64,000 nucleotides of DNA from the NCBI RefSeq assembly GCF_030013595.1, contig NZ_CP122768.1. One strand, written 5' to 3'. This DNA comes from Escherichia coli (GTDB lineage Bacteria > Pseudomonadota > Gammaproteobacteria > Enterobacterales > Enterobacteriaceae). Under the pieces are notes generated by a model that worked only from the letters and a program-made list of their open reading frames with translations, did not search any database and was not told where the DNA came from. Positions 5,222 through 48,601 of this stretch are shown one piece after another. The position numbers and the translations under genes were made by a program. How positions within the stretch are numbered: position 1 is the first letter of the stretch; every line of letters starts with the position of its first letter.

Positions 5222-5806
5222 TTACTCCCTGACAGGGTTCGTAGGCCACTCAATATCAGGTGCAGTTGATGTATCAACACGGTTCAGCAACACCCGATAC
5301 TTTTTCCAGGCTTCCAGCAACGAGGTTTCTCCCTCCGTTGCGATTTCCAGATCTGCAGCATCCTGAAGTGGCGCAATATGCTCACTGGCTACCTGCATCA
5401 GGCTGTTTTTTGTTTCTTCCGCCTCCCGGATCCGGAACAGTTTTTCTGCTTCTGCATCTTTCACCCAGGTTGTGCCGTTCCACTTCTGAAACTCCCCTTC
5501 CGGGGATAACCAGGTGACATTTTCCGGTAATGAGCCGAGTTCAGAAATAAATAACGCGTCGCCGGAAGCCACGTCATAGACGGTTTTACCCCGATGGTCT
5601 TCAACGAGATGCCACGATGCCTCATCACTGTTGAAAACAGCCACAAAGCCAGCCGGAATATCTGGCGGTGCAATATCGGTACTGTTTGCTGGCAGACCTG
5701 TATGAGGCGGAATATATGCGTCACCTTCACCAATAAATTCATTAGTTCCGGCCAGCAGATTATAAATTTTTATGGTCCGTGGTTGTTCACTCATTCTGAA
5801 TGCCAT
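5222..5806 (-). CDS. tfa: Tail fiber assembly protein Tfa
   Basis: 194-aa ORF immediately downstream of stf; lambda Tfa-like sequence. Confidence 0.85.
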
Positions 5807-24463: not shown

Positions 24464-28144
<3,681 letters not shown>

Positions 28145-28170
<26 letters not shown>

Positions 28171-28690
28171 TCAGCAACCCCGGTATCAGTTCATCCAGCG
28201 CGGCTGCTTTGTTCATGGCTTTGATGATATCCCGTTTCAGGAAATCAACATGTCGGTTTTCCAGTTCCGGAAAACGCCGCTGCACCGACAGGGGGATCCC
28301 GTCGAGAATACTGGCAATTTCACCTGCGATCCGCGACAGCACGAAAGTACAGAATGCGGTTTCCACCACTTCAGCGGAGTCTCTGGCATTCTTCAGTTCC
28401 TGTGCGTCGGCCTGCGCACGCGTAAGTCGATGGCGTTCGTACTCAATAGTCCCTGGCTGGAGATCTGTCTCGCTGGCCTGCCGCAGTTCTTCAACTTCCC
28501 GGCGCAGCTTTTCGTTCTCAATTTCAGCATCCCTTTCGGCATACCATTTTATAACGGCGGCAGAGTCATAAAGCACCTCATTACCCTTGCCACCGCCTCG
28601 CAGAACGGGCATTCCCTGTTCCTGCCAGTTCTGAATGGTACGGATACTCGCACCGAAAATGTCAGCCAGCTGCTTTTTGTTGACTTCCAT
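28145..28690 (-). CDS. nu1: Terminase small subunit Nu1
   Basis: 181 aa, MEVNKKQLADIFGASIRTIQNWQEQGMP as in lambda Nu1. Confidence 0.9.
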
Positions 28691-28867
28691 TGTTCATTCC
28701 ACGGACAAAAACAGAGAAAGGAAACGACAAAGGCCAAAAAGCCCGTTTTCAGCACCTGTCGTTTCCTTTCTTTTCAGGGGGTATTTTAAATAAAAACATT
28801 AAGTTACGACGAAGAAGAACGGAAACACCTTAAACCGGAAAATTTTCATAAATAGCGAAAACCCGCG

Positions 28868-28879
28868 AGGTCGCCGCCC
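28868..28879. other. cosN cohesive-end site within the cos region
   Basis: aggtcgccgccc is the reverse complement of the lambda 12-nt cohesive end GGGCGGCGACCT; the flanking ~190 bp match the lambda cosB region as recalled. Confidence 0.75.
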
Positions 28880-29078
28880 CGTAACCTGTCGGATCGCCGG
28901 AAAGGACCCGCAAAATGATAATAATTATCATCTACATGTCACAACGTGCATCTACGCCATCAAACCACGTCAAATAATCAATTATGACGCAGGTATCGTA
29001 TTAATTGATCCGCATCAACTTAACGTAAAAACAACTTCAGACAATACAAATCAGCGACACTGAATACGGGGCAACCTC

Positions 29079-29273
29079 ATGTCAACGAAGAACAGAACCC
29101 GCAGAACAACAACCCGCAACATCCGCTTTCCTAACCAAATGATTGAACAAATTAACATCGCTCTTGATCAAAAAGGGTCCGGGAATTTCTCAGCCTGGGT
29201 CATTGAAGCCTGCCGTCGGAGGCTAACGTCAGAAAAGAGAGCATATACATCAATTAAAAGTGATGAAGAATGA
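29079..29273 (+). CDS. YlcI-like small protein
   Basis: 64-aa ORF resembling DLP12 ylcI. Confidence 0.6.
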   Translation: MSTKNRTRRTTTRNIRFPNQMIEQINIALDQKGSGNFSAWVIEACRRRLTSEKRAYTSIKSDEE

Positions 29274-29437
29274 ACATCCCGCGTTCTTCCCTCCGAACAG
29301 GACGATATTGTAAATTCACTTAATTACGAGGGCATTGCAGTAATTGAGTTGCAGTTTTACCACTTTCCTGACAGTGACAGACTGCGTGTTGGCTCTGTCA
29401 CAGGTTAAGTAGTTTGAATGATTAGCAGTTATGGTGA

Positions 29438-29644
29438 TCAGTCAACCACCAGGGAATAATCCTTCATATTATTATCGTGCTTCACCAACGCTGCCTCAAT
29501 TGCCCTGAATGCTTCCAGAGACACCTTATGTTCTATACATGCAATTACAACATCAGGGTAACTCATAGAAATGGTGCTATTAAGCATATTTTTTACACGA
29601 ATCAGATCCACGGAGGGATCATCAGCAGATTGTTCTTTATTCAT
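29438..29644 (-). CDS. YbcW-like small protein
   Basis: 68-aa ORF resembling DLP12 ybcW. Confidence 0.6.
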
Positions 29645-29887
29645 TTTGTCGCTCCATGCGCTTGCTCTTCATCTAGCGGTTAAAATATTACTTCAAATCT
29701 TTCTGTATGAAGATTTGAGCACGTTGGCCTTACATACATCTGTCGGTTGTATTTCCCTCCAGAATGCCAGCAGGACCGCACTTTGTTACACAACCAATAC
29801 TATTAATTGAAAACATTCCTAATATTTGACATAAATCATCAACAAAACACAAAGAGGTCAGACCAGATTGAAACGATAAAAACGATA

Positions 29888-30340
29888 ATGCAAACTACGC
29901 GCCCTCGTATCACATGGAAGGTTTTACCAATGGCTCAGGTTGCCATTTTTAAAGAAATATTCGATCAAGTGCGAAAAGATTTAAACTGTGAATTGTTTTA
30001 TTCTGAACTAAAACGTCACAATGTCTCACATTATATTTACTATCTAGCCACAGATAATATTCACATTGTGTTAGAAAACGATAACACTGTGTTAATAAAA
30101 GGACTTAAAAAGGTTGTAAATGTTAAATTCTCAAGAAATACGCATCTTATAGAAACGTCCTTTGATAGGTTGAAATCAAGAGAAATCACATTTCAGCAAT
30201 ACAGGGAAAATCTTGCTAAAGCAGGAGTTTTCCGATGGGTTACAAATATCCACGAACATAAAAGATATTACTATACCTTTGATAATTCATTACTATTTAC
30301 TGAGAGCATTCAGAACACTACACAAATCTTTCCACGCTAA
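29888..30340 (+). CDS. YbcV-like protein
   Basis: 150 aa from ATG at 29888 ([12 protein letters not shown]); DLP12 ybcV-like. Confidence 0.65.
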
Positions 30341-30630
30341 ATCATAACGTCCGGTTTCTTCCGTGTCAGCACCGGGGCGTTGGCATAATGCAATACGTGT
30401 ACGCGCTAAACCCTGTGTGCATCGTTTTTAATTATTCCCGGACACTCCCGCAGAGAAGTTCCCCGTCAGGGCTGTGGACATAGTTAATCCGGGAATACAA
30501 TGACGATTCATCGCACCTGACATACATTAATAAATATTAACAATATGAAATTTCAACTCATTGTTTAGGGTTTGTTTAATTTTCTACACATACGATTCTG
30601 CGAACTTCAAAAAGCATCGGGAATAACACC

Positions 30631-30924
30631 ATGAAAAAAATGCTACTCGCTACTGCGCTGGCCCTGCTTATTACAGGATGTGCTCAACAGACGTTTACTG
30701 TTCAAAACAAACAGACAGCAGTAGCACCAAAGGAAACCATCACCCATCATTTCTTCGTTTCTGGAATTGGGCAGAAGAAAACTGTCGATGCAGCCAAAAT
30801 TTGTGGCGGCGCAGAAAATGTTGTTAAAACAGAAACCCAGCAAACATTCGTAAATGGATTGCTCGGTTTTATTACTTTAGGCATTTATACTCCGCTGGAA
30901 GCGCGTGTGTATTGCTCAAAATAA
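30631..30924 (+). CDS. bor: Bor lipoprotein (serum resistance)
   Basis: 97 aa with lipobox LITGC; Bor-like sequence; opposite strand to the lysis genes. Confidence 0.85.
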   Translation: MKKMLLATALALLITGCAQQTFTVQNKQTAVAPKETITHHFFVSGIGQKKTVDAAKICGGAENVVKTETQQTFVNGLLGFITLGIYTPLEARVYCSK

Positions 30925-30955
30925 TTGCATGAGTTGCCCATCGATATGGTCAGCT

Positions 30956-31429
30956 CTATCTGCACTGCTCATTAATATACTTCTGGGTTCCTTCCAGTTG
31001 TTTTTGCATAGTGATCAGCCTCTCTCTGAGGGTGAAATAATCCCGTTCAGCGGTGTCTGCCAGTCGGGGGGAGGCTGCATTATCCACGCCGGAGGCCGTG
31101 GTGGCTTCACGCACTGACTGACAGACTGCTTTGATGTGCAACCGACGACGACCAGCGGCAACATCATCACGCAGAGCATCATTTTCAGCTTTCGCATCAG
31201 CTAACTCCTTCGTGTATTTTGCATCGAGCGCAGCAACATCACGCTGACGCATCTGCATGTCAGTAATTGCCGCGTTCGCTAGCTTCAGTTCTCTGGCATT
31301 TTTGTCGCGCTGGGCTTTGTAGGCGATTGCGTTATCACGGTAATGATTGACCGCCCATGACAGGCTGACGATGATGCAGATAATCAGAGCGGATATAATC
31401 GCGGTTACTCTGCTCACTGTTGCCCCCAC
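30956..31429 (-). CDS. rz: Spanin inner-membrane subunit Rz
   Basis: 157 aa with N-terminal TM segment and coiled coil; overlaps the endolysin 3' end. Confidence 0.8.
31015..31197 (-). CDS. rz1: Spanin outer-membrane lipoprotein Rz1, embedded in Rz
   Basis: 60-aa ORF in the +1 frame inside Rz; lipobox VVGC; proline-rich. Confidence 0.7.
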
Positions 31430-31911
31430 AAACAGACTTCACGCTCAATCTCACGACGAGTCATCAGGCCTTTCCATTGCTTACCGCCAGCGTATGTCCA
31501 GCGACGCAGCTGATCACATGCGCCTTTGATATCGCCCTGGTTTATTTTGCGAAGAAGCGTCGATGTTCTAAAATTGCCAGCACCCACATTGTAAACGAAT
31601 GAGTAAAGAGCGCCGCGCGTTGTTTCCGGTATATCGACTTTGATATACGGGTTAATTTGTCTGGCGACAGTGGCAAGGTCTTTATTCAAGAGTGCTTTGC
31701 ATTCTGCTTTGGTATACGTTTTACCGAGCATGATGTCTTTTCCGGTGTGTCCGTGACATACAGTCCATACACCAACAATATCTTTGTATGGTATGTAGCT
31801 GACACCTTCCAGACCATCGTTACCACTTGGGCCAGTGATTAACACTGATGCTATAGCAATTGCTCCGCCACCAATAGCAGCAGCAACGGCTTTTCGTAAT
31901 GATGGAGGCAT
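31414..31911 (-). CDS. SAR endolysin (lysozyme, phage-21 R type)
   Basis: 165 aa; Gly/Ala-rich weakly hydrophobic N-terminal SAR segment; E..D..T lysozyme catalytic pattern. Confidence 0.85.
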
Positions 31912-32126
31912 TATTCACCTCTCGCAGCCTTGCGCTTATCTTCTTTAATCTTGAAATAAAGGTTTGTCAGGTACGTCAGCAGGCCAAATACCAGGCTACC
32001 CAGCACACCTATTGCTGCCCACTGTGAGGGAGTGACTTTATCGAGCAGCTGTAAAAACCAGTAACCGGCACTACCTGCTGAGGTGCCATAGGCGACTCCA
32101 GTTGTTAACTTATCCATGAATTTCAT
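31911..32126 (-). CDS. Pinholin (S21-like holin)
   Basis: 71 aa from [23 protein letters not shown]; two TM segments; phage-21 pinholin-like. Confidence 0.8.
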
Positions 32127-32713
32127 AACCCCACCTCGCAGACAAAGCGGGTGTAAATTGAGGGAATACAACGTATCGCAAAAAAGCAGAAACGTAACTG
32201 ACTCCGAGTCAGTGAATAACTCAGGTATTGAGTTATCAGCTAATATCGAGACTCAAAAAATGGAAAAACCAGCTCGACGGCGGGTTTAAGCTGTGTGACG
32301 AAGTAACCACTCTTAACAGCATAACCAATTTTTTACGTACGTAAACCACTGAATGATATTTATGAGAATGCTACCGAGTGTTCAAAACATCACCACAAAT
32401 ACATAAGAAAACCTCAACAAATAACCAATAAATAATTTCCAGTGTTATTTTTAGCCGGTTTAAATTAAACAGACGAATTATAGAACCACCATAAATAACA
32501 GCCATTAATATAAATTAGCTAATAGATTTATTTTTGTTCAAATAAGAGCCATAAATAGGTTTCGATAGAAAAAGTTCAGATAAAAATAGAGATCTACTTC
32601 ACAAATTAAATGAGAAACTAAAACTTACATCTTGAAATAATCACATTGATTAGATGAATATTTATCGCGCAGTGACATCATTTTTTAATAATAGTTCAAA
32701 AAAAGGGCTCACG

Positions 32714-33811
32714 ATGAAAAAATTAACAGTGGCAATTTCTGCTGTAGCTGCATCAGTACTGATGGCGATGTCTGCTCAGGCAGCTGAAATTTATAATAAA
32801 GACAGTAACAAGCTGGATCTGTACGGGAAAGTTAATGCCAAGCACTACTTTTCCTCTAACGATGCAGATGATGGTGATACTACTTATGTTCGTCTGGGCT
32901 TCAAAGGCGAAACCCAAATCAACGATCAGCTGACTGGTTTCGGTCAGTGGGAATATGAATTCAAAGGCAACCGCGCTGAATCTCAAGGTTCCTCCAAAGA
33001 CAAAACCCGTCTTGCATTTGCAGGCCTGAAATTCGGTGACTACGGCTCAATCGATTACGGCCGTAACTACGGTGTAGCATACGACATCGGTGCGTGGACT
33101 GACGTTCTGCCAGAATTCGGTGGCGATACCTGGACCCAAACAGATGTGTTCATGACTGGTCGCACCACTGGTGTTGCAACCTATCGTAACAACGACTTCT
33201 TTGGTCTGGTTGATGGTCTGAACTTTGCTGCTCAGTACCAAGGCAAAAACGATCGTAGCGATTTCGATAACTACACCGAAGGTAACGGTGATGGCTTCGG
33301 TTTCTCTGCTACCTATGAATACGAAGGATTCGGTATCGGTGCAACTTATGCGAAATCTGATCGTACCGACACTCAAGTTAATGCAGGGAAAGTTCTTCCT
33401 GAAGTATTTGCTTCCGGTAAAAATGCAGAAGTTTGGGCCGCAGGTCTGAAATATGACGCTAACAACATTTACCTGGCCACTACCTATTCTGAAACCCAGA
33501 ATATGACTGTATTTGCTGATCACTTCGTTGCTAATAAAGCTCAAAACTTCGAAGCTGTTGCACAATATCAGTTCGATTTCGGTCTGCGTCCGTCCGTTGC
33601 TTACCTGCAATCTAAAGGTAAGGATCTTGGAGTATGGGGCGATCAGGACTTAGTCAAATATGTTGATGTAGGTGCAACCTATTACTTCAACAAAAATATG
33701 TCTACTTTCGTTGATTACAAAATCAACCTGCTTGACAAAAATGACTTCACTAAAGCACTCGGTGTAAGCACTGATGACATCGTTGCTGTAGGTCTGGTTT
33801 ACCAGTTCTAA
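32714..33811 (+). CDS. nmpC: Outer membrane porin NmpC (OmpD-like), intact
   Basis: 365 aa from [11 protein letters not shown]; general porin sequence ending in F; lies between Q and the lysis genes on the opposite strand, as in DLP12. Confidence 0.9.
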
Positions 33812-33820
33812 TCTGATTAC

Positions 33821-33861
33821 GAAAAAGATATGTTGCGGGAGGCGTTGCCTCCCCAACATAT
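33821..33861 (-). terminator. Candidate tR' late terminator downstream of Q
   Basis: Long hairpin atatgttgcgggagg..cctccccaacatat followed by a U-run on the minus strand, ~150 nt after the Q stop. Confidence 0.5.
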
Positions 33862-33948
33862 AAGTGGCTCCCTCAAGCCACTTCCTTTAGGAGCACAACC
33901 TTGCTTCTAACTATATAAACCTTCTGTTATATATTACCCTTTATTTTT

Positions 33949-33974
33949 GGGGGCGTTGCAACGCCCCATTTTTA
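33949..33974 (+). terminator. Intrinsic terminator downstream of nmpC
   Basis: Perfect palindrome ggggcgttgcaacgcccc followed by ttttt. Confidence 0.65.
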
Positions 33975-34000
33975 ATAACTTTCAGTAAACAATTGGCATA

Positions 34001-34384
34001 TTAATTAGAGTTATTAACAACGATATCCATCTCTAACCGGATATCTAATGCCATTAACATCCCTTCAATTATGCCCTCAGCCTTCTGTAACCTTTTCCCG
34101 ATATAACCATCAGAGCAGCAATGCTTACCTGCCAGTGACATGAATGTCATACCGACTACATAATAATCTACTAATAAATCGTGCAAATCGCTGTTGTTCT
34201 TTTTCAGACGGGCCATGCACCCGCAAATAATCATCGCGTCATCGTCACAACATTGCGGGCGAGATTTTACTTTTGAAGGAATTAATCCCTTAAAACCGGC
34301 GGCAATGGACGACCAGGTCACATCTTCATGATTATTAGCCGCCCACGCTCCCCAACGTTCAAGAACCATCTGAATATCACGCAT
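34001..34384 (-). CDS. Late antiterminator Q (phage-21 / DLP12 QuuD type)
   Basis: 127 aa from [18 protein letters not shown]; Cys-rich Q-like sequence. Confidence 0.85.
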
Positions 34385-34401
34385 TAACTTTCTCCACAAA
34401 A

Positions 34402-35397
34402 TCAGGCCAGCACACCAATCGCCAGTGCGCGATCGATAAAACGAAATATCAGCTCCAGCTGGGAGCCATACTTCTCTTCAAATGCCACGGTATCCGCATG
34501 CAGTTCGTCGTGGTGTTTTCTGCACAAAGGCAACACAAAAAGGTCATGCGCTTTTGTACCCATTCCACCCTGACCATGGCCTATCAGATGATGCGGATCA
34601 TCAGCTGGCTTTCCACAACATGCACACGGCTGTGTCTTAACCCAGCGCGTGTACTTTTCATTAACCCAGCGGCGACGTTTTGGGCGTAACATAAAAGACT
34701 CCGGCGACTCCGGATCCACTTTCAGCGCCAGCACCTTTTTCGCCTTATCCTGGATGATGCTGGTGGCAGGAACCGAAGGCACAAGGTCACTTTCCCGGGT
34801 AACAGACGGCACAACAGGCTTCGGTAATCTCAGTGCCTTACGGGCTGCACTTTCCGGTAAGGCATCCGCCAGATCATTACGAATCAGCCACCAGCACAGT
34901 TCCGGCATTGTCACAACGTGACTGTCATCAAAACCGAGATCCCGACGCACAACAGACAACACCCAGCGGGCACAGTTATCCGTTGCCATTGATTCCAGCC
35001 GTTCCGTGAACTGATCGCGCAGCTGGTTATCGCAGTGCCAGCACAGACGGATTGCACCCGGAGCGTGTCGCATTGTGGTCATGTTCTCGCTGTGCCAGTC
35101 GGAATGAGGCCACTGGCAGCCTTTTTCACGAAGTAACCAGCTTTCAAGACATTCCACGCCACCAGCACGACGGATCACTGCCTCATTGCGGAACACGGCC
35201 CGAACGGCAGGATCATCCGCCAGCGGTTGTGATGCCGCCGGAACGGCACCACTGGCGAAAGATGAATAACGCTCCGGCTCAGGCTCCAGCAGGACACGCC
35301 CCTGCATAAACAGGGGCATCAGCTCTGAACCTGGCCTGAACAATACGATCCCCATACGCGGGGCAATTTCAGGGGTCAGTAGTGCTCTCACGGTCAC
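34402..35397 (-). CDS. DUF968 / NinG-like protein with HNH-type Cys-His motif
   Basis: C-terminal [25 protein letters not shown] motif; GTG start at 35397 (alternative ATG further in). Confidence 0.65.
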
Positions 35398-46113: not shown

Positions 46114-46190
46114 TGGCGCGCCCTGCAGGATTCGAACCTGCGGCCCACGACTTAGAAGGTCGTTGCTCTATCCAACTGAGCTAAGGGCGC
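46114..46190 (-). tRNA. argU: tRNA-Arg (UCU) argU
   Basis: Reverse complement gcgcccttagctcagttggatagagcaacgaccttctaagtcgtgggccgcaggttcgaatcctgcagggcgcgcca is a cloverleaf with anticodon TCT and terminal CCA. Confidence 0.9.
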
Positions 46191-46432
46191 GTTGATACCG
46201 CAATGCGGTGTAATCGCGTGAATTATACGGTCAACCCTTGCTGAGTCAATGGCTTTTGATCTGGTTGCTGAACAAGTGAACGACCGCGTCTGATTTTCTG
46301 ATTTATTTCGCTATAGCGGCAAACAAACGTACATCGCTGCGCGTCTGAATCAAGAAAACTCGTATTTTCATGTATCAAAGTACAATTTCCCGCCCTAACG
46401 GAAAATTGTCCGATCCAATGAGACTGGTAACT

Positions 46433-47065
46433 ATGAAACCAACGTCGGTGATCATTATGGATACTCATCCTATCATCAGAATGTCTATTGAAGTTCTGTT
46501 GCAAAAAAACAATGAATTGCAAATTGTCCTGAAAACGGATGATTATCGCATAACCATCGATTATCTCCGAACCCGTCCTGTTGATTTAATCATTATGGAT
46601 ATAGACTTGCCCGGAACAGACGGTTTTACCTTCCTGAAAAGGATCAAACAAATCCAGAGCACAGTGAAAGTATTATTTTTATCATCGAAATCAGAATGCT
46701 TTTATGCTGGCAGAGCGATACAAGCTGGTGCTAACGGTTTTGTCAGTAAATGCAATGATCAGAATGATATTTTTCACGCCGTTCAGATGATCCTCTCCGG
46801 ATACACTTTTTTTCCCAGCGAAACGCTCAACTATATAAAAAGCAATAAATGCAGTACGAATAGTTCAACGGTCACGGTGCTATCTAATCGTGAAGTGACC
46901 ATATTACGTTATCTGGTTAGCGGATTATCCAATAAAGAAATTGCCGATAAGTTATTACTTAGCAATAAAACAGTTAGTGCGCATAAATCTAATATTTATG
47001 GCAAGCTAGGTTTGCATTCAATTGTAGAGCTTATCGACTACGCCAAATTATATGAATTAATATAA
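46433..47065 (+). CDS. fimZ: Response regulator FimZ (LuxR-family)
   Basis: 210 aa from MKPTSVIIMD; receiver domain plus LuxR HTH. Confidence 0.85.
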   Translation: MKPTSVIIMDTHPIIRMSIEVLLQKNNELQIVLKTDDYRITIDYLRTRPVDLIIMDIDLPGTDGFTFLKRIKQIQSTVKVLFLSSKSECFYAGRAIQAGANGFVSKCNDQNDIFHAVQMILSGYTFFPSETLNYIKSNKCSTNSSTVTVLSNREVTILRYLVSGLSNKEIADKLLLSNKTVSAHKSNIYGKLGLHSIVELIDYAKLYELI

Positions 47066-47067
47066 TA

Positions 47068-47583
47068 TTAATTGTAATTGATCATAAATATCGCATCCGC
47101 TTTCGCCACACCTGGCTGAACACCGCTGGCTAACGCTCGATAATTGGCAAAAAAGTTTAGTGTGACATTGCCATTTGCATCTACTTCCTCAGTCGGACTC
47201 GCCTCCCCCAGTGCGAGCCGGGAGCGATCGCTATTACGTAATTCGATGGCGACGGTTTGTGCCATTGCGGGATCATCCAGAGCCAGCAGGTTGGCATCAG
47301 ATGCCGGCGTTCCCGTAAATAAAATCGCAACTGAACCCGGAGGACATCCCTCCAGCCGCAGGCTAAAAGGGACGAGTGCCGTGGTATCGCCAGCGCTCAG
47401 TAATTGTGTCGTAGGCCATCTGCCTAAATCTACCGTCTTATCCTTATCCGCTGTGTTTACGGTACAGGAGAAATCAACAACGTTACCGTGCAAATTGATA
47501 TTAATCGTTCCTAAAGGGTCAACTGCCCATCCACTGGAACTCCACAGTAGCCCGCAGAAACAGCTAAAGAGTACTCTTCTCAT
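47068..47583 (-). CDS. sfmF: Fimbrial minor subunit SfmF
   Basis: 171 aa from MRRVLFSCF; fimbrial subunit. Confidence 0.8.
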   Translation of the reverse strand: MRRVLFSCFCGLLWSSSGWAVDPLGTININLHGNVVDFSCTVNTADKDKTVDLGRWPTTQLLSAGDTTALVPFSLRLEGCPPGSVAILFTGTPASDANLLALDDPAMAQTVAIELRNSDRSRLALGEASPTEEVDANGNVTLNFFANYRALASGVQPGVAKADAIFMINYN

Positions 47584-47593
47584 TCTCCGTACC

Positions 47594-48601
47594 TCATTGA
47601 TAATCGACGCGTAAATACCCCAGCGCGCTAAACGGCCCTTCGGTCGGTTTTTGACCGGTAATACTGATAGGCCAGGCGCGAAGTGTGACATTGGCTGCCG
47701 CAGCTGCATCCAGACGGAAAGGAATAACGCTATTGAGATCGTTAGGCGTGATCGGCGTATCGTTCTGATCGGCCACAATAAAACCTAAATCCTGATTGTC
47801 CGACACCATCGCCTGACCAGAAACGGCACTGGCTTCCAGACGCATTGTTAAATAAGCCTGCGCAGCAACATTCGTACATTTGATCGCAATGCTCTTGGTT
47901 TGCGGCATGACACCAGCTGGTCGATTCCCCGGCCCTGCCGCACTAAATAACGATGCGCCGATATCACCAAAATCAAATTCAACAATTTGCCCGGCATTTA
48001 ATTCGCAGTTTTGCGGTACTTCAACCCGGCCACCAAAACTAATGGTATAAACAGGTGTAACCAACGGATCGTTAGGCGTTGATGTCACATACACGGTAAA
48101 CATCACCTGTCTGGGGATCTCCACCATGTTAATAAAGGGACGAATAACCTTTAAACGAAATATCAAACGAGAATCCATCACCCCGAACGGAAGGTTTTGC
48201 GAAACGTTAGGATCTGTTCCCATACGGATATAATTTTGCGGGGGAAACTGAATATCCATCACGCTATCAACCAGACTCATCGCACCTAATAGATAATCAT
48301 TTAATTGCATATATTTATAATTATCGATAGTTTCCTGAACAATAAAGTTGGTGACATAACTACGGTATGTATAATTCACCAGCGTGCCGGGTGGACAAAT
48401 TGCTGACACACCTACCCAGCCGGATTTTTCCGGTAAAACAACAATCTGGCCTGGCTGGTTATTGGTGCTATTAAAGACATTTGAGAGATCATAGTGTTCA
48501 TCTTCTGCTACGCCAGTACTATTTGCACAAACAGTAGCCCAGGATATGTTTGCCAGACACAAACATGCCATTGCCAATAATAATCTGCAGATTATCTTCA
48601 T
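47594..48601 (-). CDS. sfmH: Fimbrial adhesin-like protein SfmH
   Basis: 335-aa ORF with signal peptide. Confidence 0.8.
   Translation of the reverse strand: MKIICRLLLAMACLCLANISWATVCANSTGVAEDEHYDLSNVFNSTNNQPGQIVVLPEKSGWVGVSAICPPGTLVNYTYRSYVTNFIVQETIDNYKYMQLNDYLLGAMSLVDSVMDIQFPPQNYIRMGTDPNVSQNLPFGVMDSRLIFRLKVIRPFINMVEIPRQVMFTVYVTSTPNDPLVTPVYTISFGGRVEVPQNCELNAGQIVEFDFGDIGASLFSAAGPGNRPAGVMPQTKSIAIKCTNVAAQAYLTMRLEASAVSGQAMVSDNQDLGFIVADQNDTPITPNDLNSVIPFRLDAAAAANVTLRAWPISITGQKPTEGPFSALGYLRVDYQ

Follow-up and report, generated by a model that had tools for sequence, protein, structure and literature searches.

The closest described relatives of the gene cluster analyzed here are the right end of the phage lambda genome and the K-12 prophage DLP12 (borD-ybcV-ybcW-ylcI-nohD). 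In lambda, bor and p78 were found by CRISPRi to be non-essential, and p79 to be essential only via polarity on the late transcript (PMC10695390). Homologous DUF3950 and DUF1398 genes occupy the same place beside a Nu1-type terminase in Qin (ynfO-ydfO) and in PhiR70_1, with the same FNR box upstream. Among lambdoid phages, morons have been described as extra, dispensable cassettes of deviant composition and variable presence that are expressed from the prophage (Juhala et al. 2000; Cumby et al. 2012, both as cited in PMC7067206).

A 64,000-nucleotide stretch of Escherichia coli DNA (contig NZ_CP122768.1, referred to below as the window) was previously read from its sequence alone, and this preliminary description proposed a moron cluster of four small genes between the lysis cassette and cos. 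The cluster turns out to be already known by its sequence, as the lambda right end and as borD-ybcV-ybcW-ylcI of DLP12, and because of this identity it matters little as a discovery. We consider it very probable that the segment represents the right arm, non-essential and adjacent to cos, of a lambda/DLP12-type prophage, built as a mosaic of four accessory cassettes under host control. What our analysis adds is the recognition of YlcI as a likely ribbon-helix-helix (RHH) protein, the YdfO fold of YbcV, and the finding that a toxin-antitoxin reading of ylcI/ybcV is unsupported. The three y-genes of a model phage thereby gain sharper hypotheses, namely an RHH regulator, a non-structural DUF1398 protein and a control by low oxygen, H-NS and PdhR.

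Locus, boundaries and coding status

The region from 24 to 46 kb of the window is a lambda-like prophage in reversed orientation, with its late genes on the minus strand. The prophage ends with intD beside a tRNA-Arg(TCT) gene (46114-46190), which is the argU/DLP12 attachment site, and the chromosome is of STEC type. The four ORFs sit between cosN and Rz (30956-31429), and all of them were found where the preliminary description had put them (29079-30924), with cosN on one side and Rz/Rz1/R/S on the other (Table 1). The names ylcI, ybcW, ybcV and bor used in that description also stand, as they agree both with the family matches and with the PGAP names given in several STEC chromosomes that are 100% identical over 28000-34500. 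The genes are not arranged on alternating strands as had been stated; the actual order is + - + +, with ylcI, ybcV and bor opposed to the late operon and only ybcW running along with it.

Table 1. Features of the cluster and its surroundings, in window coordinates
Feature	Position	Strand	Remarks
Nu1/nohD	28145-28690		terminase A, W and portal gene to its left
cosN, AGGTCGCCGCCC	28868-28879		read directly from the sequence; marks the lambda genome ends
FNR consensus box, TTGATCCGCATCAA	29005-29018		exact TTGAT-N4-ATCAA; centred 67 nt before the ylcI ATG
Candidate -10 element, GACAAT	29040-29045		
ylcI	29079-29273	+	64 aa; DUF3950; equals lambda complement 48109-48303, where the ORF is unannotated
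Variable 609-bp segment	29242-29850		from blastn breakpoints and junction alignment; absent from Qin and PhiR70_1
ybcW (lambdap79)	29438-29644	-	68 aa; phrog_657; sole cluster gene co-oriented with the late operon
Weaker FNR-type site, ATGATTTATGTCAA	29826-29839	-	in the divergent ybcW-ybcV spacer
PdhR box, ATCTGGTCTGACCTCTT	29852-29868	-	at the right junction of the 609-bp segment
ybcV (lambdap78)	29930-30340	+	136 aa; DUF1398
Terminator-like hairpin and T-run	30397-30422	+	downstream of ybcV; consensus scan only
Sigma-70-like promoter candidate, CTGACA-16-AACAAT	30517-30544	+	upstream of bor; consensus scan, 9/12 matches
bor	30631-30924	+	97 aa; outer-membrane lipoprotein, lipobox LITG|C
Rz, Rz1, R, holin (S)	30956-32171	-	
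Terminator-like hairpin and T-run	30983-30997	+	59 nt past the bor stop, inside Rz antisense; consensus scan only

The alignment to lambda begins at window position 28880, and position x of the window corresponds to lambda position 48502-(x-28880). DNA identity is 98.5% between 28880-31000 and lambda 46383-48502, and 99.1% between 28700-31000 and K-12 DLP12. Genes, order, strands and spacers are the same as at the lambda right end, with few substitutions and one 1-bp spacer indel, and the proteins are identical to those of lambda at 68/68 (YbcW), 63/64 (YlcI), 134/136 (YbcV) and 94/97 (Bor) residues. In contrast to lambda, an nmpC/lc-type porin gene and a DLP12-type Q (quuD) are present here upstream of the lysis genes, and the prophage is integrated at argU. 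The argU/intD locus is shared with DLP12, in which the PdhR box and the FNR 24-mer between ybcW and ybcV are identical to ours, whereas the FNR 24-mer of ylcI differs in one base of the N4 spacer (TTGATCCGCATCAA here, TTGATCTGCATCAA in K-12). The K-12 copy is truncated after nohD and carries IS5 in nmpC, whereas the prophage described here keeps its head genes, though with an amber codon in terminase A. This in-frame codon is the cause of the split terminase A ORFs; a frameshift was considered for them and ruled out. A scan of 26-36 kb with Rfam gave nothing relevant.

The segment from 28880 to 30955 has a GC content of 0.40, as compared with 0.52 for the whole window and 0.52-0.53 for the flanking Nu1 and Rz genes; the four genes themselves range from 0.32 to 0.44, with the lowest value, 0.32, in ybcV. 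Pairwise Nei-Gojobori pN/pS ratios are 0.07-0.22 for the ylcI core, 0.17-0.28 for ybcV and 0.25-0.42 for bor. For ybcW the ratio is about 1 against close alleles, a comparison with only 9-10 changes, and 0.2-0.47 against the divergent copies of PhiR63_1 and HannyBb. With pN/pS low in all four, in the case of ybcW against the divergent copies, these comparisons indicate that the ORFs are real genes under purifying selection and not chance ORFs. An antisense ORF at 29477-29683 and a palindrome at 29693-29718 showed no conservation in divergent homologues.

Predicted properties of the four proteins

YlcI matches Pfam PF13132 (DUF3950) with 71.4 bits (cut-off 25) and NCBIfam NF041551 (YlcI_YnfO) with 36.6 bits (cut-off 30), and it is basic (pI 10.5). 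Its AF2 model (pLDDT 73) has an extended stretch at residues 1-18 followed by helices at 19-32 and 37-63 with GSGN between them; the model is a monomer prediction, in which the beta strand cannot form. PDB sequence searches with YlcI, both single and profile, gave no match. The Foldseek list against PDB, in which the best E value of 0.39 is not significant, consists mostly of RHH proteins, including NikR, Arc, ParD, MazE9, HicB, CopA, NikA and MatP. Using hhalign with a hand-typed RHH set, NIRFPNQMIEQINIALDQKG of YlcI was aligned to NLRWPREVLDLVRKVAEENG of Arc (P 4e-4, probability 34%), in a register that places NIRFP of YlcI opposite the NLRWP strand of Arc. YlcI thus resembles Arc/Mnt of phage P22 in its strand motif (N-I-R-F-P versus N-L-R-W-P in Arc), its two helices, its G-x-N turn, its small size and its basic character, whereas the sequence and Foldseek scores of the comparison are not significant. 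YlcI is probably an Arc/Mnt-like RHH DNA-binding protein, and we infer that it most likely acts as a dimer and as a small transcription regulator.

Searches for homologues of these genes suffer badly from contamination, as lambda control DNA has been submitted under the names of unrelated species. The best 120 matches of the YlcI homologue search are mostly error-ridden lambda contigs of about 3.5 kb, which are uninformative on diversity, and diverse YlcI sequences were taken from a representative protein library instead. The YlcI family is small, with 141 representatives in a set of 1.84 billion proteins, and many of these are sequencing or frameshift noise.

YbcV scores 157 bits against DUF1398. 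In-frame upstream starts at 29888 and 29807 would give proteins of 150 and 177 aa and are the source of the longer versions found in databases. Its predicted structure (pLDDT 86.6) contains a duplicated helix-helix-strand-strand-strand unit, the only fold match of which is YdfO, with no capsid-like or envelope-like match in PDB or BFVD; among the BFVD viral models the fold search returned none at E <= 1e-3. A match of 18 bits (E 2.9e-4) between YbcV and the PADLOC model REase_II was judged to be due to chance. YdfO is reported to be stress-induced, and to protect against oxidative stress upon overexpression (PMC4077768).

YbcV is labelled as a 'head protein' in RefSeq, is placed in PHROG 413 and appears in older records as a 'putative envelope protein', and these labels are all that speaks for a structural protein of the virion or envelope. 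Such a role is highly improbable: ybcV is oriented against the late operon, its lambda counterpart p78 is non-essential by CRISPRi (PMC10695390), the protein has neither a signal peptide nor a hydrophobic segment, its fold matches YdfO only, and DUF1398 paralogues stand alone on chromosomes, as ycgX of E. coli and as genes in Klebsiella and Salmonella. We take YbcV to be a protein of the cytoplasm that belongs to DUF1398, has the fold of YdfO and is not part of the virion. The head and envelope labels on lambdap78 are unsupported and should not be propagated.

YbcW is a small acidic cytoplasmic protein (pI 4.9), identical over 68/68 residues in DLP12 just as in lambda. Residues 23-55 are invariant among divergent homologues; the searches detected no relatives beyond its narrow family, and the PDB sequence search gave no match. 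Bor scores 105.6 bits against PF06291 (Lambda_Bor; cut-off 25), carries Ala at position +2 of its lipobox and is identical to DLP12 BorD over 97/97 residues, and by these matches it belongs to the Bor/Iss lipoprotein family. Serum resistance is established for lambda Bor (Barondess and Beckwith, as cited in PMC7067206), and by analogy the Bor of this prophage would be expected to confer it as well. Expression of bor in lysogens is described, at second hand, in PMC7067206.

A mosaic of separable cassettes

At least five different arrangements of these genes were encountered in other phages, and each of the four was met without the others. Among 80 IMG/VR loci fetched through YbcV, the lambda-type order is present in 48, and 24 others have the divergent ybcW-ybcV pair only, without ylcI or bor, adjoining a different small terminase gene and gnsB/cspI-type genes. 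In Qin and PhiR70_1, ynfO and ydfO are directly adjacent and co-directional, unlike the genes here, with neither ybcW nor bor, and YnfO (77 aa) has a different, longer C-terminal tail. YYZ-2008 has ylcI by itself, flanked by Rz and HNH-TerS, and PhiR63_1 has ybcW by itself, flanked by gnsB and Nu1 and co-oriented with both. The phage collection holds 155 YlcI records, 40 of YbcW and 43 of YbcV.

The homology to Qin and PhiR70_1 covers 28700-29241 and resumes at 29851. The 609-bp segment in between holds the C-terminal tail of YlcI, ybcW and most of the ybcW-ybcV spacer, and its right junction coincides with the PdhR box. These results support a moron-like behavior of the cluster, which is AT-rich and dispensable and whose genes are present or absent independently. 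We adopt this reading because of the purifying selection, the AT-richness and the at least five combinations in other phages, and the moron cluster of the preliminary description is borne out in its AT-rich composition, its dispensability by CRISPRi in lambda and the independent presence and absence of its genes among related phages. Dispensable cassettes, deviant composition and variable presence are shared with the morons of lambdoid phages, whereas in the present case own promoters and terminators are only predicted and ybcW lies on the late strand. Shuffled sequence yields at least as many promoter-like sites as were counted in this region.

The junctions of the 609-bp segment also bear on the question of whether ylcI and ybcV once formed a single module, an RHH regulator or antitoxin with a DUF1398 effector or toxin, that was split by insertion of the ybcW cassette. 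The segment occupies precisely the interval that separates the homology blocks and takes the place of the C-terminal tail of YlcI, the distance between ynfO and ydfO is about 57 bp in both Qin and PhiR70_1, and an RHH protein followed by a protein of about 136 aa resembles the layout of a type II toxin-antitoxin system. Their linkage is loose, however, given 155 versus 43 phage records for YlcI and YbcV, the 24 of 80 loci with ybcV and without ylcI, the presence of ylcI without ybcV in YYZ-2008, and the DUF1398 genes that stand alone in Klebsiella and Salmonella and as ycgX. The PADLOC defence models gave no significant match, and we regard a split module as quite improbable. A type II toxin-antitoxin pair proper, for which obligate linkage in one operon is expected, was rejected as ybcW intervenes and the two genes occur independently.

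A different role for YlcI is suggested by its neighborhood. The gene always adjoins the terminase/cos end (Nu1 in lambda, HNH-TerS in YYZ-2008), and in two divergent family members a Terminase_2 N-terminal domain (E 1.6e-11) is joined to DUF3950. The int/primase/TerS/capsid islands in which these fusions lie also encode a YlcI homologue of 60 aa as a separate gene, at the position of a divergent promoter. YlcI could on these grounds take part in DNA packaging or in helper-satellite interplay, either by binding DNA beside cos or through cross-talk with PICI-like DUF3950 proteins. We hold this to be unlikely, since the direction of ylcI transcription is the reverse of that of the late (packaging) operon, packaging is normal in lambda from which this region is missing (literature cited in PMC10695390), and one of the DUF3950-Terminase_2 fusions is treated by PGAP as two pseudogene fragments.

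Host regulation and late transcription

The exact TTGAT-N4-ATCAA motif is found only once in the 64-kb window, upstream of ylcI, and together with the GACAAT element its geometry fits a class II promoter for ylcI. Alleles of the box differ in the N4 spacer but never in the half-sites. FNR ChIP-chip peaks have been reported in K-12 at nohB, nohA/ydfO and ybcW (PMC1802558), and in FNR ChIP-seq the ylcI/nohB and nohA/ynfO peaks are present in all data sets (PMC3688515, Tables S5, S6 and S9). Both of the latter sites have a PWM score of 16.68, the highest among the rows of Table S6 covered here (PMC3688515). In K-12, ylcI is an estimated FNR target, yet cells in glucose minimal medium showed no FNR-dependent change in its expression (PMC3688515, Table S9).

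A wider conjecture can be attached to this box, in which YlcI/DUF3950 would represent a so far unrecognised group of Arc-like RHH regulators common to lambdoid prophages and PICI-like satellites, linking low oxygen, through the FNR-bound ylcI, to the control of accessory genes, helper-satellite relations or packaging. For the PICI-like satellites, this proposal places DUF3950 at the divergent control region, in some cases as a fusion with the DNA-binding domain of a small terminase. Taken as a whole, we consider it speculative and give it a low probability.

In the ybcW-ybcV spacer, a published K-12 FNR 24-mer matches exactly at 29821-29844, and the PdhR box is a single exact match with 0 expected by chance. 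In K-12 the ybcV/ybcW FNR site is covered by H-NS, and FNR binding to it was seen only in the hns/stpA mutant background (PMC3688515, Tables S2, S6 and S7). Sigma-70 occupancy at the ybcV/ybcW site rises from 82 to 434 anaerobically, and the K-12 sigma-70 and FNR ChIP peaks support promoters both at ylcI and at ybcV/ybcW (PMC3688515). Aerobic/anaerobic mRNA ratios of 0.30 (borD) and 0.24 (ybcW) correspond to three- to fourfold more mRNA anaerobically (PMC3688515, Table S12), and under microaerobic conditions ybcV and ybcW are up by 1.7-1.8 log2 (PMC8910356). By RT-qPCR, ybcV is down 10-fold and ybcW 8.9-fold in a pdhR mutant (PMC7660256), and strong derepression of ybcV and ybcW is reported when H-NS is perturbed by T4 MotB (PMC7827196). 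RNA-seq of K-12 shows ybcW and ylcI as a convergent overlapping transcript pair (PMC12288877). All of these expression data pertain to the K-12 DLP12 copy, and not to this strain or to an inducible lambda lysogen. For that 99.1%-identical copy, an absence of expression in the lysogen is contradicted by published mRNA data because transcripts of ybcV, ybcW, ylcI and borD have been reported from DLP12, in line with the lysogen expression that the preliminary description had proposed.

In the mosaic that we favor, the four cassettes would have been acquired independently. While the prophage is repressed, the late operon on the minus strand would be silent, and host RNA polymerase would transcribe ylcI, ybcV and bor on the plus strand and ybcW on the minus strand from their own promoters. 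These would be wired to host regulators, with FNR at ylcI and an H-NS-masked FNR site together with the PdhR box in the ybcW/ybcV spacer, and the net outcome of this wiring would be higher expression at low oxygen. Upon induction, Q-modified polymerase would read the entire region on the minus strand; ybcW would then be made as a late gene too, and the late RNA would be antisense to bor, ybcV and ylcI.

The orientation of ybcW leaves some room for another view, in which ybcW, perhaps together with the rest of the segment, would have its function in lytic growth and be expressed mainly within the Q-dependent late transcript, immediately ahead of Nu1, and not as a lysogenic-conversion gene. The gene ybcW lies on the late strand, it is found between gnsB and Nu1 in the same orientation as both in PhiR63_1, and the loss of plaque formation upon CRISPRi against p79 is due to polarity (PMC10695390), which means that late transcription crosses the region and passes through ybcW. 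This view is possible but rather doubtful. In literature cited in PMC10695390, ybcW is non-essential in lambda, and DLP12 is without a functional late operon, yet its ybcW is transcribed, in a PdhR-dependent manner (PMC7660256) and at a fourfold higher level anaerobically (PMC3688515).

Two minor observations concern the expression of ybcW. Its lytic and lysogenic modes of expression are not mutually exclusive. The gene is necessarily within the Q-dependent late transcript, and hence it is not purely a lysogen gene.

Integration site and state of the prophage

The prophage is inserted at argU, adjoining intD, with fimZ and the sfm genes farther out. This argU/intD/fimZ/sfm setting is that of the DLP12 locus, and the prophage is therefore a far more complete relative of DLP12, which is cryptic in E. 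coli K-12. Its terminase large subunit gene A aligns to lambda A with 98.6% DNA identity and no indel (638/642 codon positions, stop codon included), and the alignment places an amber codon at codon 443 (GAG to TAG). One genome has a 100.0% match to window 28000-34500, and there PGAP, the NCBI annotation pipeline, flags A as a pseudogene. Judging from the sequence, the amber codon probably leaves the prophage defective in packaging.

Features of the prophage and of loci with DUF3950-related genes (locus coordinates are each locus's own)
Feature	Position	Strand	Remark
Terminase large subunit A	window 26245-28170	-	amber codon at 26842-26844
Perfect 9-bp inverted repeat TCAAATCTT-N8-AAGATTTGA	window 29693-29718		ybcW-ybcV spacer
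nmpC/lc-type porin gene, intact	window 32654-33811	+	between quuD (Q homologue) and holin
tRNA-Arg TCT	window 46114-46190		integrase directly to left
DUF3950-related, PICI-like islands	L008 5590-6363 / L092 11153-11920 (NZ_CP027459.1)
DUF3950-related, PICI-like island	L007 4714-5103

Porin gene and inverted repeat

The nmpC/lc-type porin gene, which runs opposite to the late genes and follows a very AT-rich segment (GC 0.28), constitutes another moron. The K-12 copy is interrupted by IS5, whereas that of the window is intact. The right arm of the spacer inverted repeat is not kept in the L068-type homologue.

DUF3950 proteins in PICI-like islands

In islands resembling phage-inducible chromosomal islands (PICI), with integrase, primase, small terminase and capsid genes, a YlcI homologue of 60 aa is encoded at a divergent control region. 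The same islands encode a fusion of DUF3950 to a Terminase_2 N-terminal part (ORF of 120-129 aa), which in one case was split by PGAP into two pseudogene fragments. The NZ_CP027459 island sits inside the gene for the large terminase of a Stx-like prophage, and this prophage carries a ylcI itself. In L008, two copies of the palindrome GGTACGTACC surround a TATAAT some 70 nt before position 5590, just 5′ of the 60-aa homologue; from this arrangement they look like the operator pair of an autoregulated dimeric DNA binder.

Lambda control DNA among public records

Many public “homologues” of the four cluster proteins are lambda control DNA. Examples include the record “Campylobacter phage CJLB-4”, 48.5-kb “plasmids” assigned to Stenotrophomonas and Paenibacillus, “plasmids” of ~3.5 kb from S. 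aureus, Xanthomonas, Acinetobacter and Klebsiella, and a record of an E. coli isolate obtained from cape gooseberry. Hundreds of ENA contigs, ~3.5 kb long, contain variants with frameshift noise. This cos-proximal end of lambda is exactly what the 3.6-kb nanopore control amplicon covers.
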